Assembly: GCA_036391015.1 (NCBI GenBank)
Contig: DASWAR010000161.1
Location: forward strand, 1-41,288
Reading direction: 5' to 3'
DNA from: Terriglobales bacterium
Lineage (GTDB): Bacteria > Acidobacteriota > Terriglobia > Terriglobales > Acidobacteriaceae
DNA: 41,288 nt
The position numbers and the translations under genes were made by a program. Under the pieces are notes generated by a model. The model did no database searches and was not told the DNA's origin. It saw nothing but the letters and a program-made list of their open reading frames with translations. This document shows positions 76 to 40,058 of this stretch, in pieces (positions within the stretch are counted from its first letter, which is position 1; the number at the start of each line of letters is the position of its first letter).

Positions 76-1617
76 TTACGGCCCGACGCCGCCGGTGTGA
101 CAGTCGGCGCAATTGACGGCGGTCATGTCGCCCAGGTCAACCGGGTGCTTGAACTTCATGCCCTGCGTGCTGCCGTAGACGGGTTGCCCGCTCTCCAGTT
201 CGGCGAGGACGGTATGGCAGGTATCGCAATCCTTGGTCAGCGCCTTGCCGTCGGGGCTGACGTGATTGCCGTCGTGACAGCGGAAACAGCCGGCGAACAT
301 GAAATGCCCGATGTTGTTCGGGTGCACGCGCCAGTCCACCTTCATCTCGGGGAACATGGTGGTCTTGAAAATCCGCTGCACCTCGGCTATGGCGCCGCGA
401 ATTTCCAGCTCCTTGCTCTTGGCTAACGCGGGATATCTCTCGCCATAGAATTTTTCCAGGTTGGTGGCGATGGCCTGGGTTGCTTCCGGCGTGGAATTGT
501 AGCCGGCGCTGAGAACCGCGACTGCCTGCTGCTTGATGAAGGGCAAGGTCGAATCGATCCGTCTGGCAACCAGCGCCTCGTCCACCGAGTGATCGGGCGG
601 GGGATAGATGTGCGAAGGACGGTTGTGGCAGTCGACGCAATCCATGCGCCGCTTGGGCATGCCGGCAAGCTCCTCCGGCTTGACCGGGTTGTCCTTCGAT
701 TGGTAGACGGTGACGCGCCCGCTCTGGTCTTTCACCTGCACCCACGGGATCACCTGGCGCTGCTTGTCGCTGGTGGCATAGGTGATCTCGTTGGCGATGT
801 TCATGTGCCAGTGAATGCCGGTGGGCGCACCGGTGGTGGGATCGCCGCCGCCGGTGTTGATCAGCATGCGGATCTGCCGGGGCGTATTTTTTTCGTCGCT
901 GCCGTAGTGATAGAAGACCTTCAATTGCGCGCCATAGAACTTGCGCGGCCAATGGCACTGCTCGCAGGTTTCCTGCGCCGGGCGCAGGTTCGCGACCGGA
1001 GTGGGAATGGGCTTGGGATACTTGTGGAAGGTGACGGAGTACACCTGGTAGGCGCCGGAGAGCTTGGAGCGGACGTAAAATCCGGCGCCGGGGCCGACGT
1101 GGCAATCCACGCAGCGCACGCGCGCGTGCGGCGACTGGCTGTAGGCGACGAACTCGGGGTTCATGACCGAGTGACAAAGCTGGCCGCAGAACTGGATGGA
1201 GTCGGTGAACTCGTAGGCGCGGTAGCTGCCGGCCGCGCTGAGGGCGACAAAGACGATGGCGAAGCAGACGAAAAACGCGAAGGCGCCGCGCTGCTGCGGA
1301 TCATTGAGATCGATGCGCGGGTAGCGCGCCATGGACGGCGCCTGAGTGCGCCGGCGCGAGCGCTCCGCCCACATGCCCACCGGGATCAGCAGCAGTCCCA
1401 GGATCATAAACGCGGGCAGGATCATGTACGCGAAGATGCCGATGTAAGGACTGGGCCGGGCGGAAATGTAATCAATAAAAATGAGGAATGCGATGTTGGC
1501 CGCGCTGATGACGGCCAACGCCACGCCGACCAGGCTGATCGGGTTCCGGAACAGGCCCGGCGGCGGGTCCTGCGGGGAGGCGGGCGAGGCTACTTCATCG
1601 GGGGGCTGGTCGGCCAT
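76..1617 (-). CDS. Membrane-anchored NapC/NirT-type heptahaem cytochrome c (ImcH-like quinol dehydrogenase candidate)
   Basis: Tracked ORF is 76..1683. AGGAGG sits 8 nt upstream of the ATG at 1617, which favours that start. Three N-terminal hydrophobic helices are followed by CGQLCH (Cx3CH) directly after TM3. Then come six CxxCH motifs: CVDCH, CEQCH, CVDCH, CFRCH, CDTCH, CADCH. The architecture (3 TM plus 7 haem motifs, about 510 aa) matches the published description of Geobacter ImcH. No alignment was run. Confidence 0.8.
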
Positions 1618-1727
1618 CCAAAATCCTCCTGGATTTCCTGTGGCATGCTGCACCGGCTGCGGCTGCGCCGGTGCAAAAAGCAACCGCGCAGCTTACGTCA
1701 AATGTAATCCGCCGACAAACAACGGCC

Positions 1728-1765
1728 TGTGGCGCAAGTCACAATCGCGTGTGACCTGGACCACA
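1728..1765. promoter_or_regulatory. Two CRP-type half-degenerate palindromes forming one composite palindrome upstream of the ImcH-like gene
   Basis: TGTGG-cgcaag-TCACA at 1728-1743 and TGTGA-cctgga-CCACA at 1750-1765. Each is one mismatch from TGTGA-N6-TCACA. Their centres are 22 bp apart. They lie in the 183-nt gap between the CbcL-like stop (1801) and the ATG at 1617. Confidence 0.5.
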
Positions 1766-1800
1766 GGCCATACCTGCCCGCCGGTTTGCATTCCGGTCCC

Positions 1801-3825
1801 TCAAGGGCGCGGGCCGACCGGTTGCTTGTCCTCCGACTCTTCCGGCGCCGGCAGCGGCTCGGGCGCGCCGCTCTCCGCCGCCGCGGCATCCACGGCCCGG
1901 CGGACGGTCTCGCTGTCGAGGCCGTGCTCCTCCTGGTAATGCTCCACCGACATCTTCCCGTCGTACCAGGCCCAGTTCATCGGATAGACGTCGGCGTCGT
2001 ACATGACCTGGTAGAAGTGCCAGAACAGAATGGCGAGCGTCGCCAGGATGGCCTCGTAGAAGTGGATGGCGGTGGCGACGTCCAGCCACCACCGGGGAAA
2101 CAAGTGTCCGACCTGCACCTTGAACCACAGCGCCAGGCCGGTGCTGGCCATCACGATGGTTCCCCACAGCAGAGCCCAGTACTCCACCTTCTCGCCGTAG
2201 TTGAAGCGCTTGAACTGCGGTTTGGCCACATTGAGGCCGAGGTAGTGGCGCATGGTGTCGCGCGCATCGAGAGCGTCCTTCGGCTCCGGCAGCATGGCGG
2301 CAAACAGGCGCCGTCCCTCGACGCTGACCATCAGGTACCCGAGATGATACAGGCCCACGGCGATGAGCACGCCTCCGGCGGTACGGTGCAGGATGCCGCG
2401 CAGCGTCTCGTTCAGGTTCAGCATCTCGGCGAACCAGGAGTCCGGATACTTCAGCGCGAAGCCGGTGATCACCAGCACGAAGAAGCTGATCAGCAGCGCC
2501 AGGTGCTGCAGGCGCTGGTTGGTATCCATGCGGCGGACGATGCGGCGATGCGCGTCGCGGCGCAGCACCGCCTTGCGGCGCCAGATAATCAGGTTGTGCA
2601 GCAGCATGGCACCGATGGTGAAGAAAATCAGCGTCAGGTACATGCGGCGGATCCAGCGCACCGCGACGCTGCCGATATCGGCGGAGAGTGGCGCGTCCAC
2701 GTGCACTTTGCCCTGGATAAATTTTTCGGTGACGCCGGGATGGCACTGGCCGCAGGTCTTGATCAGGTTGGCGTGGTTGACGGTTGACTTGGGATCGGAG
2801 GACGGCAGGATGTTGTGCGCGCCGTGGCAGCTGGCGCAATTGGCGACCACCTTGGATCCCGCCTTCGACGCCAGCCCGTGATAGCTCGCCAGGTAGGTGC
2901 TGCCGCGACGGCCCTCGACACCGAACTCGCCCGCCAGGCGCACGCTCTCATGGCAACGCGCGCAGGTGCTGCGCGCCAGGTTGTAGGCGCTCACCGACGA
3001 TGCGGGATCGCTGGGCGCCTTGATGGTGTGAATGCCGTGACAATCGGTGCACACCGGCGCCTGCCAGTTGCCGCGTGTCACCGCCTGCCCGTGAACGCTG
3101 GTGATGTATTCCTGCTCGACCTTTTCATGGCACTTGGCGCAGGTAAAGGGAACGTTGGCCTTGGCAATCGAGGACTTCGGATTGCCGCCGTTCAGGATCT
3201 CGTGCGCGCCGTGGCAATCGGTGCAGACCGCGGCCTTGCTCTTGTCGCCTTCCTTGGTGACCGATTTTCCGTGCACGCTCTCTTCGTAGTTGATGAACGG
3301 CTGCGCGCTGTGGCCGCTGGCCTCCATGACGAACTTCTGGCCGTGGCAGGCGCCGCAGGTGACGGGAATGTTGGAGCGGTGCACCTTCGCCTTCGGATCG
3401 GTGGCGGGCAGGATCTGGTGCACGTTGCCGTGGCAGTCCTGGCAGGAGGCGGCGAGTTTGTCGCCGCTCTTCACTGCTTGCGCGTGGAAGCCGCGGTTGT
3501 AGGCGGCATCCTGGTCGGCATGGCAGGTGGCACACTTGGGCTTGGCGGGCGGCGTGTCGTGCGGCGCCGACTTGATGTCGGTGTGGCAGTCGGTACAGGC
3601 GAACATTCCGTGCACCGAGCCCTTGAACTTCGCCTCCTCCACCGCAAGCGAGACCTGCTTCCCGCCCACTTCCTTGGTCATGCTCGCGTCGGCGTGGCAA
3701 GCGAGGCATTCGGCGCCGGTGATTTTCGGCTGTTTCGGCTGCTTCGCGGCCCACGAAATCGCGCTGAATAAAACGAGCATGAATGCCAGCGCGATCGCAA
3801 TCCGTGTACGGCTCGGTTTCAACAT
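1801..3825 (-). CDS. Undecahaem cytochrome c fused to a C-terminal FdnI/HydC-type cytochrome b membrane domain (CbcL-like)
   Basis: Signal peptide, then 11 CxxCH motifs (CLACH, CTDCH, CATCH, CQDCH, CGACH, CTDCH, CAKCH, CTDCH, CARCH, CASCH, CGQCH), many in the doubled-CxxCH arrangement. The C-terminal ~270 aa contain several TM helices with conserved His residues (HRTAGG, HLGY, IHFYEA). This c::b fusion architecture is what is described for Geobacter CbcL. Confidence 0.85.
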   Translation of the reverse strand: MLKPSRTRIAIALAFMLVLFSAISWAAKQPKQPKITGAECLACHADASMTKEVGGKQVSLAVEEAKFKGSVHGMFACTDCHTDIKSAPHDTPPAKPKCATCHADQDAAYNRGFHAQAVKSGDKLAASCQDCHGNVHQILPATDPKAKVHRSNIPVTCGACHGQKFVMEASGHSAQPFINYEESVHGKSVTKEGDKSKAAVCTDCHGAHEILNGGNPKSSIAKANVPFTCAKCHEKVEQEYITSVHGQAVTRGNWQAPVCTDCHGIHTIKAPSDPASSVSAYNLARSTCARCHESVRLAGEFGVEGRRGSTYLASYHGLASKAGSKVVANCASCHGAHNILPSSDPKSTVNHANLIKTCGQCHPGVTEKFIQGKVHVDAPLSADIGSVAVRWIRRMYLTLIFFTIGAMLLHNLIIWRRKAVLRRDAHRRIVRRMDTNQRLQHLALLISFFVLVITGFALKYPDSWFAEMLNLNETLRGILHRTAGGVLIAVGLYHLGYLMVSVEGRRLFAAMLPEPKDALDARDTMRHYLGLNVAKPQFKRFNYGEKVEYWALLWGTIVMASTGLALWFKVQVGHLFPRWWLDVATAIHFYEAILATLAILFWHFYQVMYDADVYPMNWAWYDGKMSVEHYQEEHGLDSETVRRAVDAAAAESGAPEPLPAPEESEDKQPVGPRP

Positions 3826-3853
3826 GCCAGGACCCTTCTCTCTGCGCGCCGGG

Positions 3854-4807
3854 CTACCGGTACGCGAACAGCATGGCGTAGATGATCCACACCACGATGC
3901 TGAAGCCGATGGACAACGCCACCCACGCGAACACGCGAATGGTCTTCACCACGATGGCCGGTTGCGGATCCGCCAAATGCTGCTCCAGGCGGCCGCTGGC
4001 GACCAGCGCCTGGTACTCACGCGGCTTGTCCCGCTTTAATTCCGCCAGCGGCATGTGCCCGGTGAACACGGTGGTGTCCATGGGAAATTTTTCCGGCCGC
4101 AGGTGGGTGTTGAAGAAATGGACGGTGAAGATGAACCCGGTGGCGAGCAGCGCCTCGTCGCTGTGAATAATGGTGGCGACATTGATGAACGACCCGGGAA
4201 TCACCTGCGTGAAAAACACCGGGAACCACAGCGTCAACCCGGTGGAGCCGATGATGAACACGCCCCAGAACACGGCGAAGTAATCGAATTTTTCCCAGTA
4301 CGTCCAGCGCCCGTACTGCGGCCGCTCGCCCTGCCCCACGAACCACTTCATGGTGCCGACAAACTCCAGCAGGTCCTGCTTCATCGGCAACATCGAGTTC
4401 GGGCCCAGGAGCAACGCCTTCCAAGATCCGTACTCGCGCTTCTTGAGCTTGAATAGGTCAACGATGTGAGTGATAAACGTGGCAAACATGATCACCGCGG
4501 CGGTGCGGTGAATGAAGCCGGCGGTCTGAAATCCGCCCAGCATGCGCGACATAGACCGCGCCCACCCGGTGTAGGAAAACTTCAGCGACAATCCGGTCAG
4601 CGCCAGGGTGATGAAGCTGACGATCATGCAGACATGCAGCGTCCGGTGCAGGTAAGTGAAGCGGACGAACTCGCGACGGTCGGGCGGTGCCTCCGGCCCC
4701 CATTCATCGCTGGCGATGACCAAGGCATGATCGGCGGCGGCGGCCTTCGGCGCCGCGGGATTCGCTTCCGCAACGACGGTGTCGATCGGCTCTTTAACGG
4801 TCGCCAT
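3854..4807 (-). CDS. Stand-alone FdnI/HydC-type cytochrome b membrane subunit
   Basis: 317 aa with multiple TM helices and conserved His residues (HRTLHV, HRTAAV, IHSDEA, HFFNTH). By eye it aligns colinearly with the C-terminal domain of the 674-aa fusion protein. Its start overlaps the stop of the upstream 19-haem gene by 14 nt. Confidence 0.8.
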
Positions 4808-6821
4808 CGTGCTTCTCCTCCCCCGGTTTTTGTTCGGCAGCTTTGCGGGCCGCTTCCTCAGCGCGCAGTTCGCGGCGCATCTGGAAGGCGCGCGGCAACC
4901 ACAACAACGTGTGCACGCCGCCGACGACGAACGTCCCCAGCAGCAGCGAAGTCATGCCCCAGAACGTCCAGAACAGGAACGGGTACTTCTTGGGATCGTG
5001 GTGGGTGGCGTGCGTCAGGTATCCGGCGAAGCGCCGCGTCGCGCTGGCGTGGCATTTCTGGCAGGTCTGCACGACGTTGGCGCGGCTGAGGTGGGAGCGC
5101 GGATCGGTGACCTTCAGGATGTCGTGCGCGCCGTGGCAGTCGTAGCACTTGGCGGTCTTGGTGTAGCCGAGCCGCGAAACTTTGCCGTGATACGTATCGA
5201 AGTAAGTCTTCGCAATCTCGACGTGGCAGCGGCCGCACTTGGCCATGATGTCGAGCTTGAAGCCGTCCTCGTCGGCGCGCCGGATCTGGTGCGCAGTGTG
5301 GCAGTCGTTGCACACCGGCAGCTCTTCCTTGGTGCTGGAAACGGTCCGCGAGTGAATGCTGTTGACGAACTGCTCCTGAATGCCGTGGTGGCACTGGCCG
5401 CAGGTCGCCGGGAGGTTTTTGGGATTCACTGTGGATTCCGGATCCGACTTGGGCAGTTCGCGGTGCGCGCTGTGGCAGTTGGTGCAGGTCGCCGTCACCG
5501 TCAGGCCGCTCTTCAGCAGGCCCTTGCCGTGAATGCTCTCCTGGTAGTGCTGGATGATCTCGTGCTGCGTGCCGGTGTAGCGCATCGCAGCCTTCTTGCC
5601 TTCGCGGTGGCAGCGCGCGCACAGCGTGGGGATATTGGTGGCGAAGGTCACCGATTGTGGGTCGTGCTTGCCGAGCACGCGATGCGTGCCGTGACACTCC
5701 TTGCAGACGGGCGCGTTGGGGTCCTTCTTGGCGAAGAGCTGGCCGTGCTTGCTGCGCTGGTAGTCCTGCCCGATCTGCTCGTGGCACTTGGAGCAGTCCA
5801 CCGCCGTGACGATGGTCTCGCAGGGGCGCACACGCGAGGCGTTCACTTCCGAGTGGCACTGGCTGCAGGCCACCTTGGCATGACGGGACGACGCCACCTC
5901 CTCAACGTGCACTCCCAACGGCCGCCCATCGCGCGCTTTCAGGTTCTCGTCGGCGTGGCAACGCATGCAGTCCGCGTCGGCCATGCCCTGGGTGTAGAAG
6001 ACCTTCCGCACCTTGTGCGGCTGGTGGCAATCGACGCACGCCGGCAGCACGTGCGCCTCTTTCTCCCAAAGCGCGCCTTTGATCGTTTTGCGGTGGACAT
6101 CCTCGATGCGCGCATGGCACTTGGTGCAGGTCTTGGCGATGTTGGCCCGCGCGATCGAGGAGCCTGGATCGGTGTGCGGCAGGATGTTATGCGCCGTGTG
6201 GCAGGAGGCGCAGTTTGCCGTCACCGTCAGGCCTTTCTTCAGCAGGGCCTCGCCATGCATGCTCTCGGCATAATTCTCGATGATGTTGTGCTGCTCGATC
6301 TTCCGCTGCGTCTGTACCGGCGTGCCTTCACGATGGCATTTGCCGCAGGTGAACGGCACGTTCATCGGCGACACGGGAGAGCGCGGGTCCTTGACGGGCA
6401 GGATGTCGTGATTGCCGTGGCAACTGGTGCAGCGCGGCGCCAGAGGGTCACCGTGGGCGACGGCGCGGCCGTGCAGCGACTTGGCGTGCTGCTTGGCCTC
6501 CTCGCCGTGGCAGGTGCCGCAGTCCACTCTCTTCAGCGGCGTTTCGTGCGGCAGGTCCTTGCCCTCGAGATCGGCGTGGCAGTTAGTGCAGGACAGCGAT
6601 CCGTGGATGGATGACGAGAACTTCTTCGCCTCGACAAACAGCGAAACCGTGCGCCCGGCGCGCTTGGTGGTGAGCGTCCTGTCGGCGTGGCAAGCCAGGC
6701 AGGTGTCGTTGGGTTTGTCCTCGGCCCGGGCGGCGCCGCCGGCGAGCAGCAGGAACGCGGTGAACAGCAGCAGCGCTAACAGGATTTGCGTCCGGGCCGT
6801 GGTGCGTCGGGATACGGTCAT
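4794..6821 (-). CDS. 19-haem cytochrome c with signal peptide and C-terminal TM anchor
   Basis: 19 CxxCH motifs counted in the translation. Repeated doubled-CxxCH modules of the form C..CH..H.I...DP.S....N....C..CH. A C-terminal hydrophobic helix (FLFWTFWGMTSLLLGTFVVGGV). The ATG at 6821 begins a typical signal peptide (MTVSRRTTARTQILLALLLFTAFLLLAGGAARA). The tracked ORF extends to 6869. Confidence 0.88.
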   Translation of the reverse strand: MTVSRRTTARTQILLALLLFTAFLLLAGGAARAEDKPNDTCLACHADRTLTTKRAGRTVSLFVEAKKFSSSIHGSLSCTNCHADLEGKDLPHETPLKRVDCGTCHGEEAKQHAKSLHGRAVAHGDPLAPRCTSCHGNHDILPVKDPRSPVSPMNVPFTCGKCHREGTPVQTQRKIEQHNIIENYAESMHGEALLKKGLTVTANCASCHTAHNILPHTDPGSSIARANIAKTCTKCHARIEDVHRKTIKGALWEKEAHVLPACVDCHQPHKVRKVFYTQGMADADCMRCHADENLKARDGRPLGVHVEEVASSRHAKVACSQCHSEVNASRVRPCETIVTAVDCSKCHEQIGQDYQRSKHGQLFAKKDPNAPVCKECHGTHRVLGKHDPQSVTFATNIPTLCARCHREGKKAAMRYTGTQHEIIQHYQESIHGKGLLKSGLTVTATCTNCHSAHRELPKSDPESTVNPKNLPATCGQCHHGIQEQFVNSIHSRTVSSTKEELPVCNDCHTAHQIRRADEDGFKLDIMAKCGRCHVEIAKTYFDTYHGKVSRLGYTKTAKCYDCHGAHDILKVTDPRSHLSRANVVQTCQKCHASATRRFAGYLTHATHHDPKKYPFLFWTFWGMTSLLLGTFVVGGVHTLLWLPRAFQMRRELRAEEAARKAAEQKPGEEKHDGDR

Positions 6822-6860
6822 CCAGTACCTGCTCAGCGTGCCGTGGTAACCCCAGTACTG

Positions 6861-6874
6861 GTGACACACGTCAC
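6861..6874. promoter_or_regulatory. CRP/FNR-type palindrome GTGA-N6-TCAC (site 1)
   Basis: gtgaCACACGtcac. Its centre is about 46 nt upstream of the ATG at 6821. Confidence 0.6.
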
Positions 6875-6920
6875 GCAGGCGGGGTCATTCCTACGTTCTC
6901 AGATCGGCGACCAACCGGCT

Positions 6921-6934
6921 GTGAGTCGCCTCAC
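6921..6934. promoter_or_regulatory. CRP/FNR-type palindrome GTGA-N6-TCAC (site 2)
   Basis: t-gtgaGTCGCCtcac-g, i.e. TGTGA-N6-TCACg. Confidence 0.6.
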
Positions 6935-6942
6935 GTCTGAAG

Positions 6943-6956
6943 GTGACTGTAATCAC
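6943..6956. promoter_or_regulatory. CRP/FNR-type palindrome GTGA-N6-TCAC (site 3)
   Basis: g-gtgaCTGTAAtcac-c. Its centre is 22 bp from site 2. Confidence 0.6.
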
Positions 6957-6982
6957 CCCGGCTGTGGTTATCACCTGACGAC

Positions 6983-6996
6983 GTGAGCTCCATCAC
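6983..6996. promoter_or_regulatory. CRP/FNR-type palindrome GTGA-N6-TCAC (site 4)
   Basis: c-gtgaGCTCCAtcac-c. Its centre is 40 bp from site 3. Confidence 0.6.
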
Positions 6997-7104
6997 CTGG
7001 GCAAGCGGCCCCCGCCGCGATCGGACGCGTCATGATGAATCGGCTCAAGGATGGGCCATGCGGGGCAAAAAATGAGGGCGGCACAATTCGCCACGCTCCC
7101 CTCG

Positions 7105-7134
7105 GGCAAACAAAACGCCCGCCGAAGCGGGCGT
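7105..7134 (-). terminator. Rho-independent terminator after the truncated Crp/Fnr paralogue
   Basis: Minus strand reads aacgcccgc-uucg-gcgggcguu followed by UUUGUUUG. It starts about 20 nt after the stop at 7157. Confidence 0.8.
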
Positions 7135-7156
7135 TGTTAGGACGGCGATGATCTCC

Positions 7157-7675
7157 TCAGTTGCTGTGCGCGGCAGCGTGCGAGGCAGGGTGCACCAGGT
7201 GGGGCCGGCGCGCGCGCGCTAGTCCGATCGACCGCACTCGGTCATAGGCCTGATGCAGGTCCTGGCTGAGCAAGTGAACCACCTGCAGGCAGGCCACGCG
7301 GTGTTCGCGCAGGAAGTGCAGAAGGTCCTTGCGGCGGACGAAAGCCACCTGCGAAGTGTCCAGCATTTCCGCGGTCACTTCGTAGGGCCGGCCCGCCATG
7401 CTGGCGCTCAGGCCCAGCACCTCGCCCGGCCCGGCAACGCGCAGCATCAGGCGCTTGCGCACGTCGGAACAGACCGAGAGCTTGGCGCGCCCTTCGCACA
7501 AGACATAAATTCCCCGCGGCTGTTTGCCTTCGGCGAACAATGTCGCTCCGCGCGGCACGCTCGTGGTGGTCTTAATGGCGTCGAATGCCTGTAGCGCTTC
7601 GGCCGGCAAATCACAGAAAACCCGGTCCGGCCGCAGCTCGCAGGTAAAGCAGCTCTGGTGCTTGGCGCTTTCCAT
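7157..7675 (-). CDS. Crp/Fnr-family paralogue with cNMP-binding (effector) domain and dimerisation helix but no helix-turn-helix
   Basis: Aligns by eye with the neighbouring 253-aa regulator from SCFTCELR... to ...RVRSIGL. It then diverges and stops about 20 aa later. The ATG at 7675 (MESAKHQSCFTC) is preferred by homology. The tracked ORF starts at a GTG at 7726, inside a palindrome. Confidence 0.7.
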   Translation of the reverse strand: MESAKHQSCFTCELRPDRVFCDLPAEALQAFDAIKTTTSVPRGATLFAEGKQPRGIYVLCEGRAKLSVCSDVRKRLMLRVAGPGEVLGLSASMAGRPYEVTAEMLDTSQVAFVRRKDLLHFLREHRVACLQVVHLLSQDLHQAYDRVRSIGLARARRPHLVHPASHAAAHSN

Positions 7676-7710
7676 GACACTGGAATGATGCTTGCCGCGG
7701 GGAACCAAGA

Positions 7711-7728
7711 CAGTGACTGCTATCACTG
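7711..7728. promoter_or_regulatory. CRP/FNR-type palindrome CAGTGA-N6-TCACTG (site 5)
   Basis: cagtgaCTGCTAtcactg with perfect 6-bp arms. Its centre is about 44 nt upstream of the ATG at 7675, the same geometry as site 1. Confidence 0.6.
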
Positions 7729-7850
7729 TTTGTAGTGATGCATAACCGAAAAATCAAAGCTCGGAGCGGGCTTCGGCAGGAAATACAAGGAGCTTTCTCC
7801 GCCGCACCCGTCATGGCGCAGCGAAGTTCCGGCGAAGACTTGAGACGTCC

Positions 7851-8612
7851 CTAGACGCTGGCCAGGGCTTTCAACGCCGCCTTGTTGCGGATCAGCAACG
7901 TCGAACCCTTGGCGTGCACGATCTGCCGCTTCTTCAATTCGGCGAACAGACGCGTGACCGTCTCGCGCGAGGTCCCGATCATCTGCGCGATCTCCTCGTG
8001 GGTGAGCGCCATCTTCACGCGCGGCTCCTGCTTGTTGGCTTCCCCGTTCCTCGAGCTCCACTCCAGCAGCAGCTTGGCGAGCTTTTCCGCCGCCGAGTGT
8101 GAAAGCCCCAGCGAGCGGATCTCGTGGCAAGCGGTGTTGTACTTCTCGCTCAATTGCTCGGCCACGCGGAAGCAGGCCTCGCTGTGCTCGCGCAGGAAAC
8201 GCAGAAAATCTTCGCGCTTGACGAAGTTGACCTGGCAGGGATCGATCGTCTCCGCCGTGAGTTCGTACGGTTTGCCGGAAACGGTGGCGCTGAGCCCGAG
8301 CACTTCGCCGGGTTCGGCGATTTTCAGGATCAAGGTTTTTCCGTCGGTGGAACAGATGGAGAGCTTCACCCGCCCTTTGCAGAGGACAAAAATTCCGCGG
8401 GGCGCCTGGCCTTCCACGAACAACACTGCGCCCTTGGGATAAGCACTGGCGTACTTAATAGCTTCGAATGATTGCAGGGCGGCAGTGGGCAAATCGCAGA
8501 ATATCCGGTCGGCCCGGAGCTTACAGGTGAAGCAGCTTTCTATGATATCGAGTCCATAAGGTGATAACACGACACAACCCCCTGTGACATTCCATCTTAC
8601 CCTTCCGGTCAA
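7851..8612 (-). CDS. Crp/Fnr-family transcriptional regulator (full length, with N-terminal Cys triad)
   Basis: cNMP-binding beta-roll (FVEGQAPRGIFVLCKGRVKL...GEVLGL). C-terminal HTH reads THEEIAQMIGTSRETVTRLF; its RETVxR matches the E. coli CRP recognition helix RETVGR. N-terminal motif is C-x2-C-x8-C (CFTCKLRADRIFC). The tracked start at 8612 is TTG. A GTG at 8570 preceded by GGGGG is a plausible alternative. Confidence 0.88.
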   Translation of the reverse strand: MTGRVRWNVTGGCVVLSPYGLDIIESCFTCKLRADRIFCDLPTAALQSFEAIKYASAYPKGAVLFVEGQAPRGIFVLCKGRVKLSICSTDGKTLILKIAEPGEVLGLSATVSGKPYELTAETIDPCQVNFVKREDFLRFLREHSEACFRVAEQLSEKYNTACHEIRSLGLSHSAAEKLAKLLLEWSSRNGEANKQEPRVKMALTHEEIAQMIGTSRETVTRLFAELKKRQIVHAKGSTLLIRNKAALKALASV

Positions 8613-8623
8613 GAAAAAACTTT

Positions 8624-8657
8624 CGAACGGTCGTTAGGCGCTCCGAACGGACGTTCG
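8624..8657. promoter_or_regulatory. Two copies of an AACG-N2-CGTT palindrome in the divergent crp-like/PEBP promoter region
   Basis: cgAACGgtCGTT at 8624-8635 and cgAACGgaCGTTcg at 8644-8657. The second has perfect 6-bp arms. Spacing is 20 bp. Confidence 0.3.
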
Positions 8658-8764
8658 TGCGCGCCCGCGGAAACCAGCATGGACACGGGGTTTCCGCCGT
8701 TTCCCGTGGCGCCCTCCGCACCCACTTGGCAACCCGCTCCGGCTTCTGATGAAATGGCAGGGGT

Positions 8765-9376
8765 ATGTGGCGAATGTCGCTCCTGATTGTGACCTTGCTC
8801 ACCGCATCGGTGTACATGCAGACCGCGGCAGAAGCGCATGGAATCTGGGGTTCCGGCGGTTTCGCTCATCTCAGGGCCGGTCTTTACGCGACAAATTACG
8901 CCGCGCATACGGAGGGAGCCATGCAGGTCAACAGTAAATTGATTTCCCCCGGCGGCGAATTCCCGAAACGGGAAACATGCGACGGCCAGAATACTTCCCC
9001 GCAACTGGCCTGGAGCGGCGCCCCGCCGACTACGAAGTCTTTTGCCTTGATCCTCGACGATCCTGACGCTCCGGGCGGTACCTTTACTCATTGGATGGTG
9101 TGGAACATTCCCGCCGGCACGCATGAGTTGCCGGAGAACCTGCCGAAGACCGCGGAATGGGCGGACGGCGCCCGCCAGGGCCGCAACGATTTCGGCAAGG
9201 TCGGTTACGGCGGACCGTGCCCTCCGCCGGGAAGACCGCACCGCTATTACTTCCGTTTATATGCGCTCGACAACGCACCCGCCGTCAAACCAGGCGCGGG
9301 CCGCGAGGAACTCGAGCGCGCCCTGCAAGGGCATATTCTTGCCCGCGGCGAACTGATGGGGCGCTACGCCCGTTGA
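8765..9376 (+). CDS. YbhB/YbcL-family phosphatidylethanolamine-binding protein (PEBP/Raf kinase inhibitor-like)
   Basis: Family-typical motifs: NTSPQLAWSGAPPTTKSFALILDDPDAP, THWMVWNIP, GRNDFGKVGYGGPCPPPGRPHRYYFRLYALD. The N-terminus is hydrophobic and signal-like. Confidence 0.88.
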   Translation: MWRMSLLIVTLLTASVYMQTAAEAHGIWGSGGFAHLRAGLYATNYAAHTEGAMQVNSKLISPGGEFPKRETCDGQNTSPQLAWSGAPPTTKSFALILDDPDAPGGTFTHWMVWNIPAGTHELPENLPKTAEWADGARQGRNDFGKVGYGGPCPPPGRPHRYYFRLYALDNAPAVKPGAGREELERALQGHILARGELMGRYAR

Positions 9377-19445: not shown

Positions 19446-19856
19446 TCAGACATTGGCTTTCTGATGGCACTCGGTGCACTTGGTCGGAGCTTTCTTGCCC
19501 TTGGCGTTTTCCGCCGTGTGGCAATCGATGCAGGTGCCCTTCTTAGCCGTGGCATCGTGGAATGCCAGTTTGAAAGTGGTCTTCATCGGGGCCGCGGCCG
19601 CCTTAACGTGGCACTCGCTGCAAGCCTGCGTCTTGCCGGTGGCAGCTTTCTCCGGTTTGGACGCATGGTGGCAGGTCTCGCACTTGATGTTGCGGTCCTT
19701 GACGTGAGCCGAATGCATGAACTTCACGCCGCCCATGGGATTGCCCTTGAGGATGACCGTATCAGGCGCTGGCTTGTCTGCGGCAAAAGCGGGACCGCAC
19801 ATGACAAATAGCAGGGCGAGGCCCAACAGAACAGCAAACAGTTTGGAAATCTTCAC
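19446..19856 (-). CDS. Periplasmic tetrahaem cytochrome c3 (class III)
   Basis: Signal peptide plus four CxxCH motifs (CETCH, CSECH, CIDCH, CTECH) in about 110 mature residues. GTG start preceded by GAGGAGG. Confidence 0.88.
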   Translation of the reverse strand: MKISKLFAVLLGLALLFVMCGPAFAADKPAPDTVILKGNPMGGVKFMHSAHVKDRNIKCETCHHASKPEKAATGKTQACSECHVKAAAAPMKTTFKLAFHDATAKKGTCIDCHTAENAKGKKAPTKCTECHQKANV

Positions 19857-19960: not shown

Positions 19961-19974
19961 GTGATGTGCGTCAC
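19961..19974. promoter_or_regulatory. CRP/FNR-type palindrome GTGA-N6-TCAC (site 6) upstream of cytochrome c3
   Basis: c-gtgaTGTGCGtcac-g with perfect 5-bp arms. Its centre is about 111 nt upstream of the start. An extra everted half-site TCACGC-gcat-GCGTGA lies immediately upstream (19949-19964). Confidence 0.55.
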
Positions 19975-20102: not shown

Positions 20103-20459
20103 TTAGTAGCCGCGGCCGTAGCCACCGCCGCCGCCGCCGCGTCCGCCGCTGCCGCCACCGCGTCCACCACGACCGCCGCCGCCACCACCACCAGCACCAC
20201 CAGCGCCGCGTTCCGGCTTGGGACGGGCTTCGCTGACGTTCAAGTTGCGTCCGCCGACGCTGCTGCCGTTAATACCGGCGACGGCTTTCTCGGCTTCGGC
20301 GTCATTGGTCATCTCGACGAAGGCGAAGCCGCGGGGCTGTCCGGTGTCGCGGTCGCGAATCATGTTGACGCGCTCGACCGTACCGTAGCCCTCGAAGAGC
20401 GTGCGCAGCTCTTCCTCGCTGGTCCTGAAATCAAGGTTGCCCACGTAAATGTTCTTCAT
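20103..20459 (-). CDS. RRM-type RNA-binding protein with Gly/Arg-rich C-terminal tail
   Basis: RNP2 motif IYVGNL, RNP1 motif RGFAFVEM, then GGAGGGGGGGRGGRGGGSGGRGGGGGGYGRGY. The ATG at 20459 is preferred; the tracked ORF extends spuriously to 20870. Confidence 0.88.
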   Translation of the reverse strand: MKNIYVGNLDFRTSEEELRTLFEGYGTVERVNMIRDRDTGQPRGFAFVEMTNDAEAEKAVAGINGSSVGGRNLNVSEARPKPERGAGGAGGGGGGGRGGRGGGSGGRGGGGGGYGRGY

Positions 20460-20697
20460 ATTGTCCTCGCGGTTGAGGTCTGTTGATTGGGGGCTTGCTC
20501 GGAAGCAGCGAAGGCAGTGCCGAGTGCGGCTCGCGATCTCTAGACCGAAATAGCGGTACTTCGCCCTCTGCGGGCGGAACAAGACTACCATTTCAACGGC
20601 TTCCGCGCCGGTTCGGGCAAAACTTTTTCGCGAGCCGGCAGTGCCATTTTGGTTATTAGAACGTTCGCCATACGCGCCCTGTGCTAGCCTCGACCTG

Positions 20698-21432
20698 ATG
20701 GACGTTTCCACAACTACACGCGCCAACGGAGCGGCTGCTGTCGCTGCACCGCGGATGGTGCGCGTGCCCGAGGGCTGGTTCTGGATGGGCAGCGACGCGG
20801 GCCTGGACTGCGAGCGTCCGCGGCATCGGGTGTGGGTTGATGGATTCGAAATGGCGGCCACGCAGGTCACCCATTGTGACTACTCGCGGTATCTACGCGC
20901 AACCGGAGCGGCGCCGCCGCCGTATTTCGAACATCCGGAATTCAACCAGGCCGAACAGCCGGTGGTGGCGGTGTCATGGTTCGAGGCGGTGGCGTATTGC
21001 GAGTGGCTGAGCGCGGCGGCGGGACAGCAATATCGTTTGCCGACCGAGGCGGAGTGGGAACGGGCAGCGCGCGGAGGCGTGGACGACACGCCCTATCCGT
21101 GGGGTGATGAGCCGCCGCAGGCACGTCCGGGATATGCCAACCGGTGGAAGACGGGGCCGGAGCGGGTGGGGCAGAGCGAGCCGAATGGATTCGGCCTGCA
21201 CGAGATGTGCGAGAACGTACACGAGTGGTGCAGCGACTGGTTTGACCCGTCCTACTACTGCAGTTCGGCGGAACGTAATCCATGCGGGCCGGAAAGCGGG
21301 ACGCGGCGGGCATCGCGCGGCGGATCGTGGAGGCACCACGTCAAGAATTCCAGGTGCTACACACGGTCGAGCATTCCGCCTGAGTTTCAGTATGCGGATT
21401 ACGGGTTTCGGGTAGTGCGGAGAAGCGATTAG
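20698..21432 (+). CDS. Formylglycine-generating enzyme (SUMF1/EgtB/PvdO) family protein
   Basis: MVRVPEGWFWMGS, PVVAVSWFEAVAYCEWLS, YRLPTEAEWERAARGG, GLHEMCENVHEWCSDW, RGGSW and YGFRVVR are all family hallmarks. Confidence 0.85.
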   Translation: MDVSTTTRANGAAAVAAPRMVRVPEGWFWMGSDAGLDCERPRHRVWVDGFEMAATQVTHCDYSRYLRATGAAPPPYFEHPEFNQAEQPVVAVSWFEAVAYCEWLSAAAGQQYRLPTEAEWERAARGGVDDTPYPWGDEPPQARPGYANRWKTGPERVGQSEPNGFGLHEMCENVHEWCSDWFDPSYYCSSAERNPCGPESGTRRASRGGSWRHHVKNSRCYTRSSIPPEFQYADYGFRVVRRSD

Positions 21433-32224: not shown

Positions 32225-32352
32225 GGGGTGAATTCCCGCGAAAATCGTGCCCCGGAAGGGCAGAATTTCTTTCGCTTGAAGGCCGGCCTCGTCACAGTCT
32301 GGCGGCGATTCAAGCTGCTATATTGTCGCGGGAAGTTTCAGGTATTTCTGTC

Positions 32353-34770
32353 ATGGTCAAACGAATTGATAAAGTTGCTGTCCTCGGCGCCGGGACCATG
32401 GGCGCGCGCATTGCGGCGCACCTGGCCAACGCCGGCGTTCCCTCGTTCCTGCTGGATATCGTGGTGCCCGATGGCGACGCGCGGAACCATGTCGCCGCCG
32501 CCGGGCTGCAGGCGGCGCGCAAGTCCAAGCCCGCGGCATTCTTCGAACCATCGCTGGCGCACCTGATCACCATCGGCAACTTCGACGACAACATGAAATT
32601 TGTCGCCGAATGCGACTGGGTGATCGAGGCGGTGGTGGAAAACCTCGAGATCAAGCGCACGCTGCTGAAGAAGGTGGAAGCCGCCCGCCGGCCGGGCACG
32701 ATCGTCACGACTAATACGAGCGGGCTGCCGGTCGGCAAAATCGCCGAGGGCTTCAGCGACGACTTCCGCCGCCACTGGTTTGGCACACACTTTTTCAACC
32801 CGCCGCGCTACATGCGCCTGCTGGAAATCATTCCCACGCCCGACAGCGATCCCGCGGCGGTGGAAGCGATCGCGCATTTCTGCGACGCGCGGCTCGGCAA
32901 AGGGATTGTGACCGCCAAAGACACGCCCAACTTCATCGCCAACCGCATCGGCACATTCTCCGCGCTCAACGTGATGCGCCTGATGCAGGAGATGGACCTC
33001 ACCATCGAGGAAGTGGACGCGCTCACCGGCAGCGCCGTCGGCTGGCCGAAGATGGGCACCTTCCGCCTGGCCGACATGGTGGGGCTCGACATCCTGGGTC
33101 ACGTCGTTTCCAACATGACCACCAACATGAAGGACGAGCGCAGCGATCTCCAGCTTCCCGACTTCTTCAAGTCCATGCTGGAGCGCAAATGGCTCGGCGA
33201 CAAGACCAAGGGCGGTTTTTACAAGAAGGCAACAGGCGCTGACGGCAAAGACGACGAACGGCTCGGGTTGGATTGGAAGACGCTGGAGTACCGGCCGCGA
33301 CAGAAGGCGAAATTCCCGGCCCTGGAAATGGCCAAGCAAATCGAGGATACGCCGCAGCGCCTGCGCACCTTGCTCGGTCTGGACGGCGGCGGTCCGCAGA
33401 AGGGCGACCGTGCCGGGCAGTTCCTGTGGTCGGTGCTTTCGGATCTGTGGACGTATTCGGCCAACCGCATTGGCGAAATCTGCAACTCGCTGGTGGAGAT
33501 CGATCGTGCCATGAGCATGGGCTTCAACTGGGAGATGGGACCATTCGCGCTGTGGGACGCCGCCGGCGTCGAAGCCACGGTGGCGCGCATGAAGAAGGAA
33601 GGCCGCCCGGTGGCGGAGAACGTGGAGCGCCTGCTCGCCTCCGGCAAGAAGACGTGGTACAGCGACGCCATCGGCGCACCGTCGGGCGTTGCCTACTTTG
33701 ACGTCGCTGCCGCCGGCTACAAGGACCAGCAGGTCTCGCCGGGAATCTGGTCGGTGCAGGTGGCAAAAAAATCCGGCGGCGTGGTCAAGAAGAACCCGGG
33801 CGCGACGCTGGTGGATTTGGGCGATGGCGTGGGCTGCATCGAATTCCACACCAAGATGAACGCCATCGGCGGCGACATTCTCCAGCTTGTCACGCAATCG
33901 TTAAAGCCGGGCGGGCCCGGCGACAACTTCGACGCCTTCGTCATCACCAACGACGGCCAGCATTTCTCCGCCGGCGCCAACATCATGCTGCTGCTTATGG
34001 CCATCCAGGAAGAGGAGTGGGACGAGATTGACTTGATCATCCGCCAGTTCCAGGGGATGACGCAGGCGATCAAGTTCTCGCCGAAACCCGTGGTAGTCGC
34101 GCCTTTCGGCATAACCCTGGGCGGCGGCTGCGAAGTTTCGCTGCACGGCGCGGCGCGGCATCCGCACGCCGAACTCTACATGGGGCTGGTGGAAGTTGGA
34201 GTCGGCCTGCTGCCCGGCGGCGGCGGCTGCAAGGAGATGACGCTGCGCGCGGTGGACGCGGCGGCATCCATCCGCCCCGAGGGCCGCGGCGAGTCGGTGG
34301 AATTCATGGAGGCGATGAAGAAGGCATTCGAAACGGTCGCGATGGCGAAGATCTCGACATCGGCGGCCGAGGCACGCGCCTTCGGGATCCTCTCCAGCGG
34401 CGACCAGGTGACTATGAACCGCGAGCGCGTGCTCGCCGACGCCAAGTCGCACGTGGTAGAACTCCTGCGCTCTTATAAGCCGCCGCGCCCGCGCACCGAC
34501 ATTCCTGCGCCGGGCGAAAGCATTTTGGCGACGTTAAAGCTCGGCGTGCATCTGATGAGGCAAGCCGAATACATCAGCGATCACGACGTGAAAATTGGAA
34601 ACAAGGTAGCCGAAGTGCTCTGCGGAGGCTCAGTGACACCGGGGACGCCGGTCAGCGAGCAATATCTGCTGGACTGCGAGCGCGAGGCCTTCAAATCGCT
34701 CTGCGGGGAAAAGAAGACGCAGGAGCGGATTGCGTTCACGCTGAAGACGGGCAAGCCGTTGAGGAATTAA
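32353..34770 (+). CDS. fadN: Bifunctional 3-hydroxyacyl-CoA dehydrogenase / enoyl-CoA hydratase (FadN-type domain order)
   Basis: N-terminal Rossmann motif VAVLGAGTMGARIA with a 3HCDH domain. C-terminal crotonase fold (FSAGANI...GGGCE). About 805 aa with the dehydrogenase first, as in Bacillus FadN. The ATG at 32353 is preferred. Confidence 0.85.
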   Translation: MVKRIDKVAVLGAGTMGARIAAHLANAGVPSFLLDIVVPDGDARNHVAAAGLQAARKSKPAAFFEPSLAHLITIGNFDDNMKFVAECDWVIEAVVENLEIKRTLLKKVEAARRPGTIVTTNTSGLPVGKIAEGFSDDFRRHWFGTHFFNPPRYMRLLEIIPTPDSDPAAVEAIAHFCDARLGKGIVTAKDTPNFIANRIGTFSALNVMRLMQEMDLTIEEVDALTGSAVGWPKMGTFRLADMVGLDILGHVVSNMTTNMKDERSDLQLPDFFKSMLERKWLGDKTKGGFYKKATGADGKDDERLGLDWKTLEYRPRQKAKFPALEMAKQIEDTPQRLRTLLGLDGGGPQKGDRAGQFLWSVLSDLWTYSANRIGEICNSLVEIDRAMSMGFNWEMGPFALWDAAGVEATVARMKKEGRPVAENVERLLASGKKTWYSDAIGAPSGVAYFDVAAAGYKDQQVSPGIWSVQVAKKSGGVVKKNPGATLVDLGDGVGCIEFHTKMNAIGGDILQLVTQSLKPGGPGDNFDAFVITNDGQHFSAGANIMLLLMAIQEEEWDEIDLIIRQFQGMTQAIKFSPKPVVVAPFGITLGGGCEVSLHGAARHPHAELYMGLVEVGVGLLPGGGGCKEMTLRAVDAAASIRPEGRGESVEFMEAMKKAFETVAMAKISTSAAEARAFGILSSGDQVTMNRERVLADAKSHVVELLRSYKPPRPRTDIPAPGESILATLKLGVHLMRQAEYISDHDVKIGNKVAEVLCGGSVTPGTPVSEQYLLDCEREAFKSLCGEKKTQERIAFTLKTGKPLRN

Positions 34771-34784
34771 AGCGTCGATGGTCG

Positions 34785-35219
34785 ATGGTCGGCGGCCAAT
34801 GGCCGCGCGGAACCAGCCCCGCAGGGGCGGCAGTTCACAGCCTGGGGCGTAAGCCCCGGGTAGATCGCAAGAAAACGAACAGGGTCCCGCAGGGACGACA
34901 CGAACAAAGATTGTTCCTGACCAGAAAAATAATTCGCGCGCTCAACAACCGGCTTCTCGGCGGCCCGGATGAATTCCGCCGCGAAGCTCAACACGCGCGC
35001 AAGCAGATCGCTAAGTGGCGTCACCGCCGTCCGAAGCGCCGGCTAACGGCGCGTGTGGTGCAGGACGCGCTGATTGAAACCTGGAACCAGTTACACGGGT
35101 TCAAGGAATGGCGCAAGGTGGAGGTTGATCTCGCCGTCGTAGCTGATCGCATCACGCGCCGCTCGCACCGCATGCGCTCGCGAAAATCGCAAGCGAGGCC
35201 CCGCTTTGGGTGGTTTTGA
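34785..35219 (+). CDS. Doubtful ORF in the fadN-fadA spacer (basic hypothetical protein)
   Basis: The 3' two-thirds have GC3-rich codons. The 5' third is a REP-like hairpin cluster. There is no homology evidence and no clear Shine-Dalgarno sequence. Confidence 0.2.
   Translation: MVGGQWPRGTSPAGAAVHSLGRKPRVDRKKTNRVPQGRHEQRLFLTRKIIRALNNRLLGGPDEFRREAQHARKQIAKWRHRRPKRRLTARVVQDALIETWNQLHGFKEWRKVEVDLAVVADRITRRSHRMRSRKSQARPRFGWF
34816..34896. repeat. REP-like cluster of three short hairpins
   Basis: gcccc-gca-ggggc (34816-34828), cctggggc-gtaa-gccccggg (34841-34860) and gtccc-gca-gggac (34884-34896). Confidence 0.5.
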
Positions 35220-35223
35220 TTTT

Positions 35224-35250
35224 GAGCTAAGAGCTAAAAGCTAAGAGCTA
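35224..35250. repeat. Short tandem repeat (gagctaa/gctaaga units) directly upstream of fadA
   Basis: gagctaagagctaaaagctaagagcta, rich in TAA/TAG. Confidence 0.65.
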
Positions 35251-35253
35251 TTT

Positions 35254-36886: not shown

Positions 36887-36898
36887 GAAGGTCTAATT

Positions 36899-38686
<1,788 letters not shown>

Positions 38687-38698
38687 CAGCTAACTAAA

Positions 38699-38759
38699 CA
38701 CGGAGGCACGGAGGCTTGAATTTCTTCAATTCAATTCTCCGTGGCTCCGTGCCTCTGTG
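38699..38759. repeat. Gene-less palindromic element built from the same cacggagg words as the GxxExxY cassette ends
   Basis: cacggaggcacggag (38699-38713) pairs with ctccgtgcctctgtg (38745-38759): 15 bp with one G-T pair. It lies between the convergent fadE and NmrA-like stops. Confidence 0.6.
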
Positions 38760-38767
38760 GTAAACGT

Positions 38768-39685: not shown

Positions 39686-39696
39686 CGTCTCACCCC

Positions 39697-39963: not shown

Positions 39964-40058
39964 CCGGTGATTGTACGGGAAGCCGGCAGATTCAGTGTCA
40001 CCGCACAACCCGCCGGCGCATCTATGGAACAGCACCGACATCGAACTTTGGAGGAAGC

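Follow-up and report, generated by a model that had tools for sequence, protein, structure and literature searches.

In Agrobacterium tumefaciens, TrlR, a paralogue of the regulator TraR without a DNA-binding domain, blocks TraR through the formation of inactive TrlR:TraR dimers, and its own expression is regulated (PMC3907764). CerN of Cereibacter sphaeroides is likewise reported to be a LuxR homologue without a helix-turn-helix (HTH) that antagonizes a full-length member of its family (PMC11655674). Among Crp/Fnr proteins, the paralogues Fnr1 and Fnr3 of Herbaspirillum seropedicae interact via the dimerization helix and share promoters (PMC5934665). Here we analyse two tandem Crp/Fnr paralogues, referred to as crp1 and crp2, from a Terriglobales bacterium (Acidobacteriota; assembly GCA_036391015.1), lying in a stretch of 41,288 nucleotides (nt) of contig DASWAR010000161.1 (positions 1 to 41,288, forward strand), which is called the window throughout. 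The upstream protein is a full-length regulator, and the downstream one consists of the sensor fold and the dimerization helix without an HTH. A natural and conserved DNA-blind Crp/Fnr protein encoded beside its full-length parent, or any HTH-less Crp/Fnr partner of such a parent, was not found described in the literature searched, most subscription journals being outside its coverage. We find that crp2 is a functional gene (conserved, under purifying selection and transcribed), and we hypothesize, with confidence a little short of even, that it serves as a crp1-induced brake by forming inactive heterodimers with crp1.

Both defining domains place crp1 in the Crp/Fnr superfamily: it has a cyclic nucleotide monophosphate (cNMP)-type beta-roll (Pfam cNMP_binding, PF00027, E = 5e-18, residues 57-143 of the 253-residue open reading frame, ORF) and a Crp-type winged HTH (HTH_Crp_2, PF13545, E = 3e-18; Crp, PF00325, E = 9e-8), and its sequence matches to Crp/Fnr proteins in the PDB span residues 35-232. 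No NCBIfam equivalog comes near its cut-off for crp1 (the best, FtrB, scores 87 bits against a cut-off of 211, the Fnr model 47.7 against 228, and the CRP model 72 against 266), and crp1 can therefore be named only as "Crp/Fnr family". The crp2 protein has the beta-roll and long C-helix of the superfamily, with PF00027 as its sole Pfam domain (E = 6.5e-15), and lacks the winged HTH, as do at least 74 of its orthologues; its stop codon comes 20 amino acids (aa) past the SIGL hinge. Aligned by BLASTP over 147 aa without gaps, the two proteins are 58% identical (E = 2e-66). An earlier reading of this DNA, made from the letters alone (the sequence-only reading), had described tandem Crp/Fnr paralogues of which the downstream one is without an HTH, and had put their identity by eye at roughly half; the ORFs, the Pfam domains and the alignment bear it out. 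Past the crp2 stop, three-frame translation of the window gave no HTH remnant in any frame, and tblastn of the crp1 C-terminal domain against 600 nt gave none in 31 of 32 related loci, the remaining locus having a single weak match on the opposite strand. Since crp2 lacks the DNA-binding feature of the family, the term transcription factor does not suit it; at least one source of public annotation nevertheless applies "CRP/FNR family transcriptional regulator" to short proteins of the crp2 type.

The short form of crp2 is widely conserved. When 5.8 billion proteins were searched with crp2, 1692 matched at E <= 1e-10; the best 120 clusters, which were inspected, are 71-96% identical to it, have lengths that mostly fall at 160-183 aa, with three at 196-236, and in no case contain a Pfam domain other than PF00027. 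Two sets of loci were then compared: 31 species-level genomes obtained with the crp2 query, of which 29 have enough upstream sequence, and 80 species from the reverse search with crp1, in which crp1 is at least 87% identical. The full-length gene lies directly upstream of crp2 in 29/29 loci of the first set, and a crp2-like ORF directly follows crp1 in 77 of the 80 species of the second; one of the other three is cut by a contig end and two have none, leaving 77 of 79 informative. Five additional species with such genes were recovered with a distant HTH-less representative as query. Identity of crp1 is 86-99% across the 29, then 80 species, and that of crp2 orthologues falls as low as 53%. Nearly all crp2 copies in the second set are 161-172 aa long and none is full-length, so that the stop is no private feature of this genome; 31/31 first-set and 64/77 second-set loci share the aligned ATG, a sub-clade starting four codons later.

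Selection was estimated as the ratio of nonsynonymous to synonymous substitution rates (dN/dS, Nei-Gojobori), with the core of crp2 and its post-hinge tail taken separately. Medians are 0.055 (crp1) and 0.19 (crp2 core; 0.03-0.13 in closer crp2 pairs), and crp2 evolves three to four times as fast as crp1; the tail evolves much more freely, under relaxed constraint compared with the core. The pair is also represented in RNA. Assembled metatranscriptome contigs from related strains (wetland and soil; 90-99% identical to the window), which cannot place a 5' end, cover crp1 (7778-8573) and crp2 (7147-7690) and leave the intergenic positions 7691-7777 and the flanks uncovered; within the limits of assembled contigs, this argues for genuine transcription of both genes, as two separate transcripts. 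That crp2 might be a decaying pseudogene or an artefact of annotation, as the missing family-defining domain, the 3 of 77 copies with an apparent frameshift and the two species without the gene could suggest, is thus virtually ruled out: length, start, promoter box and an invariant set of four cysteines are kept in at least 77 species (the cysteines in 75/75 intact copies), dN/dS lies at 0.03-0.19, the gene is transcribed, and no HTH remnant follows it. In this the sequence-only reading, which had held that crp2 was not decaying and had proposed conservation of length and dN/dS as checks, was right.

The recognition helix of crp1, RETVTR, has the R-E-x3-R pattern of CRP and is invariant in 29 orthologues, and crp1 combines in sequence a helix of this kind with putative operators of the TGTGA-N6-TCACA type. 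Nine copies of the core GTGA-N6-TCAC are present in the window, where 0.50 would be expected (none of 100 shuffles reached 9), and 292.5 kb from 32 related loci contain 133, compared with an expectation of 3.6 from base composition. These boxes cluster upstream of multihaem cytochrome genes, and also upstream of crp1 and crp2; pairs exactly 22 bp apart were seen in 16 cases in the 32 loci, typically ahead of cytochrome genes, and the window boxes at 6921 and 6943 are spaced in the same way, like the tandem arrays that precede cytochrome genes in many related loci. The boxes are the probable operator type of crp1 and would form a regulon-wide set. The sequence-only reading had credited crp2 with a site of its own: the site is real, and it is not private to crp2, the same operator type being repeated at the cytochrome genes and at crp1. 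Because the box type of crp2 recurs at those genes, a feedback circuit is probable. Most related loci have one or two boxes upstream of crp1 at a distance comparable to that of the window box at 8789..8802, and autoregulation of crp1 through this box is possible. The divergent gene into whose 5' end the box falls, a secreted member of the phosphatidylethanolamine-binding (PEBP) family (8765-9376, plus strand), is a conserved neighbour of crp1 in many loci.

The promoter region of crp2 has a fixed geometry. A palindrome had been noted 44 nt upstream of the crp2 start; it lies at 7711..7728, with 44.5 nt between its centre and the A of ATG 7675 downstream, and every locus has a box ahead of crp2 (31/31 in the first set, 77/77 in the second). 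All 31 first-set loci have the box centre 41.5-45.5 nt ahead of the ATG, 23 of them at 41.5 or 42.5; in the second set, 71/77 centres fall at 41.5-45.5 nt when measured to a start extrapolated from the window ATG, about 11 of these 71 loci starting crp2 four codons later. A Shine-Dalgarno (SD)-like motif precedes crp1 in 29/29 orthologous loci and crp2 in 0/31. Crp/Fnr activators at class II promoters are centred at -41.5. The distance from box to ATG, together with the missing SD motif, suggests that crp2 depends on crp1 through a class II promoter, the box centre lying at about -41.5, and has a near-leaderless transcript; on the simplest reading, transcription of crp2 would begin at the ATG or 1-3 nt before it, and the RNA contigs give 7690 as no more than an upper bound for the start. 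A generic sigma-70 scan of positions 6700-9000 yielded no full promoter. Aligned upstream sequences point to a -10-like hexamer just ahead of the ATG, which in other clades reads TATCAA, TATCAC or GATAAA, A/T-rich and in a fixed place. The degenerate box further upstream, of which the window keeps one half-site, occurs in most loci and has the form GTG[CG]-N6-TCAC in other clades (30 aligned intergenic sequences).

At its other end crp2 is followed by an intrinsic terminator with a UUCG loop, as the sequence-only reading had it and a terminator scan confirmed: the hairpin (7135..7114) has a 9-bp stem with 7 G-C pairs and a U-rich tail, begins 22 nt past the stop, and is matched by a G+C hairpin with a T-tract after crp2 in many, not all, related loci. 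The RNA contigs over crp2 terminate at 7147-7157. With its own promoter box, its terminator and the gap in RNA coverage, crp2 is best explained as a separate transcription unit.

The sensor part of both proteins is marked by cysteines. Both N-termini carry C-x2-C-x8-C (CFTCKLRADRIFC and CFTCELRPDRVFC), as C13, C16 and C25 in crp1 and C9, C12 and C21 in crp2, where C60 completes a set of four; further cysteines common to both paralogues lie in the motifs LC[KE]GR and S[IV]CS of the roll and at the start of the C-helix; the N-terminal motif and the shared cysteines of the roll had been noted by the sequence-only reading. Counted over 75 intact crp2 orthologues (as are all residue counts for crp2), C9, C12, C21 and C60 are kept in 75/75, C129 in 72/75 and C69 in 67/75, so that the suspicion that the cysteines might not be conserved falls away. 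Equivalents of these positions are retained in crp1, which has C112 and C148 in addition; C112, near FNR C122, is present in 28/29 crp1 orthologues and in 42/83 family representatives, and is Ser in crp2. Among those 83 full-length representatives (clusters at 50% identity), conservation is highest for the three N-terminal cysteines (66-70/83) and for that of the LCxG motif in the beta-roll (75/83), and crp2 retains this family-wide quartet (triad plus LCxG) whole.

Resemblance to FNR with a different spacing had been claimed for these cysteines, and the alignments agree. Aligned by HMMER with the FNR chain of Aliivibrio, crp1 matches from C16, set against chain residue 32, presumably FNR C23 if the deposited chain has nine extra N-terminal residues; alignment by MAFFT with FNR of E. 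coli, which we take as a lead only, places the first two crp1 cysteines on FNR cluster ligands. The site in crp1 and crp2 thus appears FNR-like at its N-terminus, with x8 in place of x5 and a fourth ligand that is probably different. Because of the FNR homology and the respiratory regulon, an iron-sulfur (Fe-S) cluster that senses redox state or oxygen is the most natural guess for the cofactor. The same cysteines could instead hold zinc in a structural Zn(Cys)4 site or work as a thiol-disulfide switch, the pair then sensing a signal other than oxygen, or nothing at this site. Such a reading concerns the cofactor alone and is compatible with any model of the partners of crp2; it would account for a spacing unlike the C-x2-C-x5-C of FNR and found only in zinc-finger contexts in the literature searched, for a best-kept fourth cysteine away from the C122 position, and for the alanine at the position of FNR D154, the residue that makes dimerization of E. 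coli FNR cluster-dependent. We consider it rather improbable in view of the alignment of the first two cysteines with FNR cluster ligands, a putative regulon of anaerobic-type multihaem cytochromes, and host habitats that have oxic-anoxic transitions (soils, wetlands, peat and sediments). A cyclic-nucleotide receptor was also considered for crp1 and is unlikely: crp1 has Y-E at the cAMP-contact positions R82/S83 of E. coli CRP (MAFFT, again a lead only). Equally, the earlier suggestion that crp2 is a ligand sink is unlikely to hold if the ligand meant is a cyclic nucleotide.

We propose that crp1 is an FNR-like, cysteine-ligated (most likely Fe-S) sensor of redox state or oxygen with a CRP-type recognition helix, which would bind GTGA-N6-TCAC upstream of multihaem cytochrome genes, of crp1 itself and of crp2. 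The short gene would derive from a duplication of crp1 followed by loss of the HTH, with the four-cysteine site, the beta-roll and the helix core retained. Active crp1 would switch on crp2 from its class II, almost leaderless promoter; crp2 would pair via the C-helix with crp1 monomers; and the resulting heterodimer, with a single DNA-reading head, would be unable to hold a palindromic box. Accumulating heterodimers would in this way damp or time-limit the crp1 response, a negative feedback exerted by a truncated paralogue. We favour this brake because crp2 is linked to crp1, has a crp1-type operator at its promoter and a private terminator, and retains the sensor site. The sequence-only reading had suggested that crp2 could be a dominant-negative partner, and we see in such an action a well-motivated hypothesis. 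A broader version of the model, of which we are doubtful, sees in the pair a module common to a whole clade of soil and wetland Terriglobales: a cysteine-ligated, FNR-like activator with CRP-type DNA specificity and its obligately linked DNA-blind paralogue, induced by the activator from a leaderless class II promoter, would impose cofactor-gated negative feedback on an anaerobic multihaem-cytochrome programme. Formation of the poisoned heterodimer would itself be signal-dependent here, since crp2 shares the cofactor site, and the charge differences between the two helices, described below, would be a built-in preference for the mixed dimer. Such a module could be likened to the eukaryotic "microprotein" or Id-type inhibitors, as a bacterial counterpart.

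The structural side of the proposal can be read from the C-helix, residues 131-157 of crp1 (window ~8100-8180) and 126-152 of crp2 (~7220-7300). The AlphaFold2 (AF2) model of crp2, of moderate confidence (predicted local distance difference test, pLDDT, 72), consists of the beta-roll, this 27-residue helix and a disordered tail, and its best Foldseek matches are generic Crp/Fnr sensor domains. Both paralogues have the heptad register of the FNR helix (M144, M147, I151, D154, I158), and each of the seven a/d positions in the core holds a hydrophobic, conserved residue in crp1 and crp2 alike (crp1/crp2: C/C, A/V, L/L, Y/L, A/A, I-V/V, L/I); the position of FNR D154, which opposes dimerization, is Ala in crp1 and crp2. 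To judge from these residues crp2 is equipped to dimerize, and none of the core residues forbids pairing with crp1.

Several observations weigh against the brake. In two species (L098 and L138) crp1 is present (88-94% identical) and more than 2 kb of sequence follow it without a crp2, and three crp2 copies (L108, L145 and L157) look frameshifted; either these are real lineage-specific losses or they are indel errors in long-read bins, and crp2, given two absences and three apparent frameshifts, is dispensable in some lineages. Regulator transcripts are present where cytochrome transcripts are scarce, a comparison confounded by cross-species mapping of the highly conserved regulators. One RNA contig of low depth extends to 7690 and so overshoots the predicted start point of crp2 by 12 nt, and the sub-clade whose first crp2 ATG comes four codons later (about 11 species) makes the leaderless reading less than general. 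Charge is reversed at helix positions 13, 19 and 20, where crp1 has K, H/R and E and crp2 has D, D/E and R, in 29/29 crp1 and 73-74/75 crp2 orthologues; the reversal could favour heterodimers, or could equally mark the surface of a private homodimer or of a new partner. Finally, a pure decoy leaves the conserved Arg/His-rich tail of crp2 unexplained, and more distant HTH-less relatives share the basic tail, some of them without the Cys triad. Taken as evidence for heterodimers, the charge reversal was rejected: positions 13, 19 and 20 are g, f and g in the FNR register and face the solvent, and the canonical e' partners of the two g positions are uncharged, leaving no g-e' salt bridge.

Some of these observations would suit a different role, in which crp2 is a stand-alone homodimeric sensor with the same cysteine cofactor that does not work through crp1 and either signals to something else, such as RNA polymerase, a component of the membrane or of respiration, or a protease, by way of its diverged helix surface and its tail, or acts as a buffer or store of cofactor or metal. 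A helix surface invariant within crp2 yet unlike that of crp1, charge reversals included, would be expected of it, as would a tail whose xRxR[RH]x[RH] character is conserved and which is His-rich in several clades, the same basic tail in more distant HTH-less relatives, some of which lack the triad, and the faster evolution of crp2, expected after gain of a new function. Linkage to crp1 in 77/79 species, the crp1 operator type in the crp2 promoter and a hydrophobic a/d core matching that of crp1 all speak for crp1 as the partner instead, and no conserved gene for a third partner lies beside the pair, the downstream genes being variable; we regard a stand-alone sensor as on the unlikely side.

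The tail itself (7157-7219) averages 14 aa, 28% of them Arg and 11% His, always fits xRxR[RH]x[RH], evolves fast and is predicted to be disordered. In one sub-clade it is very His-rich (for example RTRHSHGSDHGPHNSPGSNHSRSAHTH), and in some clades it ends in LAS, MAS, LVV or MVV, reminiscent of protease-recognition tags; a role in metal binding or turnover may be considered. Its basic character would also fit a crp2 that helps crp1, as a positive or specificity-changing partner: heterodimers would sit on GTGA half-sites with the tail giving non-specific DNA contacts, or crp2 would stabilize or tune the oxygen or redox sensitivity of crp1 and so widen its response range. A site of the kind required is conserved 22 bp upstream of the crp2 box, as a lone half-site or in degenerate form, and the Fnr heterodimers of Herbaspirillum have been proposed to co-activate promoters with mixed half-sites (PMC5934665). 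The enriched sites in our loci, on the other hand, are full palindromes, often perfect, and the tail is short, predicted disordered and under relaxed constraint. Furthermore, we know of no Crp/Fnr protein that binds DNA one-headed, and a helping role for crp2 seems distinctly unlikely.

The genes around the pair (Table 1) are consistent with a respiratory regulon. Directly beyond the crp2 terminator lies a multihaem cytochrome gene preceded by four boxes, whose product contains Pfam Cytochrome_C7, Cytochrom_c3_2 and Paired_CXXCH_1 domains and has DmsE-type decahaem similarity below the NCBIfam cut-off; it is a probable member of the crp1 regulon. Orthologues of the respiratory genes at 76..4807 directly follow crp2 in many loci, with tandem boxes ahead of them. 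Two of these, the cytochrome fusion and the NapC/NirT-like cytochrome, may be likened to CbcL and ImcH, inner-membrane quinol oxidoreductases that serve extracellular electron transfer in Geobacter, and this likeness would point to extracellular electron transfer in the Terriglobales lineage. The small periplasmic tetrahaem cytochrome at 19446-19856 is probably under the same control.

Table 1. Position of the paralogue pair, its control elements and the associated genes in the window
Feature	Position	Strand	Remarks
NapC/NirT-like multihaem cytochrome	76-1683	-	Pfam/NCBIfam
Multihaem-c and cytochrome-b fusion	1801-3825	-	Pfam/NCBIfam
Cytochrome b	3854-4807	-	Pfam/NCBIfam
Multihaem c-type cytochrome	4794..6821	-	675 aa from ATG 6821; C-terminal membrane anchor
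Four boxes upstream of the multihaem cytochrome gene	6861-6874, 6921-6934, 6943-6956, 6983-6996		After the crp2 terminator
Intrinsic terminator after crp2	7104..7135	-	AACGCCCGC-UUCG-GCGGGCGUU, then UUUGUUUG
crp2 ORF	7157..7726	-	Tandem, downstream of crp1
crp2 from likely true start	7675..7157	-	ATG 7675, 172 aa; beta-roll and C-helix, without HTH
-10-like hexamer ATCATT ahead of crp2	7684..7689	-	6-9 nt before ATG; candidate from aligned upstream sequences
Perfect palindrome CAGTGA-N6-TCACTG ahead of crp2	7711..7728		Core 7713-7726; proposed crp1 operator
Second, degenerate box	7735..7748		Centre 22 bp further upstream; only the GTGA half-site (7735-7738) kept
crp1 ORF	7851..8612	-	253 aa as listed
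crp1 from likely true start	8570..7851	-	GTG 8570, 239 aa; beta-roll, C-helix, HTH
Shine-Dalgarno-like GGGGG ahead of crp1 GTG	8578..8582	-	
Box upstream of crp1	8789..8802		219-232 nt upstream of crp1 start; within 5' end of divergent PEBP-family gene
Box inside luciferase-like monooxygenase gene	17608		
Small periplasmic tetrahaem cytochrome ORF	19446-19856	-	Not in the ORF list; signal peptide and four CxxCH
Box upstream of the tetrahaem cytochrome ORF	19961-19974		111 nt upstream
Box between beta-oxidation genes	36464		Between thiolase and acyl-CoA dehydrogenase

Among public sequences, the window is closest to metagenome-assembled genomes that carry the labels Terriglobia or Terriglobales (Acidobacteriota) and come from soil, peat, wetland and sediment. 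Three loci labelled otherwise, as Chlamydiota (L011), Verrucomicrobiia (L085) and Blastocatellia (L148), have a pair of the Terriglobales type with 87-89% crp1 identity and are probably mis-binned contigs. Two other Acidobacteriota (L087 and L088) have more distant full-length relatives of crp1 (46-47% identical) with a multihaem cytochrome gene directly after them, an arrangement from which it follows that the link between regulator and cytochrome predates the duplication that gave crp2. Elsewhere in the window, 20103-20870 (minus strand) encodes an RNA-binding protein with an RNA-recognition motif (RRM) domain and a long Gly/Arg-rich C-terminal tail, its listed N-terminal extension being probably untranslated, and 32323-39970 (plus strand) holds a beta-oxidation set made up of a 3-hydroxyacyl-CoA dehydrogenase/enoyl-CoA hydratase fusion, a thiolase and an acyl-CoA dehydrogenase.

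The pair is of ecological interest for the genes on which it sits, which are those most likely to serve extracellular or anaerobic electron transfer in abundant uncultured Acidobacteriota of soil, peat and wetland; the box motif offers a handle for predicting when these bacteria would switch respiratory mode. Literature searches on the cysteine spacing and on the regulation of cytochromes in Acidobacteria, with the coverage given above, found nothing on this module. Few bacterial regulators have been studied as thoroughly as the Crp/Fnr proteins; if the feedback model is true, it would add a protein-level brake to the FNR paradigm and provide a test case for truncated paralogues in regulatory dynamics. 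Whatever the mechanism, the operator motif and the four-cysteine signature (C-x2-C-x8-C...LCxG) can be put to use, as can the observation that the short proteins cannot be DNA-binding regulators.

Among described systems, FNR, the O2-sensing [4Fe-4S] regulator of E. coli and Aliivibrio fischeri, shares with crp1 an N-terminal cysteine cluster ahead of the cNMP-type beta-roll, the first two cysteines aligning, and with both paralogues a long dimerization helix of the same a/d register; it also controls anaerobic respiratory genes, as the boxes of crp1 adjoin respiratory cytochrome genes. The two differ in the following: C-x2-C-x8-C in place of C-x2-C-x5-C, a fourth conserved cysteine in the beta4-beta5 turn (LCxG) of crp1 and not at C122, Ala at the D154 position, a recognition helix RETVTR in place of E--SR, and boxes of GTGA-N6-TCAC in place of TTGAT-N4-ATCAA. 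By its cysteine spacing, fourth cysteine, recognition helix and operator, crp1 is not a canonical FNR. CRP resembles crp1 in fold, in the R-E-x3-R helix and in the core spacing of its TGTGA-N6-TCACA operator; with cAMP contacts apparently absent (Y/E at R82/S83, by the alignment taken as a lead) and an N-terminal Cys cluster present, crp1 is not CRP either.

For crp2 the comparisons are with partner proteins. Fnr1 and Fnr3 of Herbaspirillum are both full-length DNA binders whose heterodimer is proposed to activate, whereas crp2 has no DNA-binding domain; CerN differs from crp2 in belonging to the LuxR family and to quorum sensing. Closest in working principle is TrlR, which like crp2 is a duplicated regulator that has kept its ligand/dimerization part and is without its DNA-binding domain. 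TrlR belongs to the unrelated LuxR family, occurs only on some Ti plasmids and is regarded as a defective copy of recent origin; crp2, by contrast, is chromosomal, old and strongly conserved in at least 77 species, and is apparently induced by the very regulator that it would inhibit.

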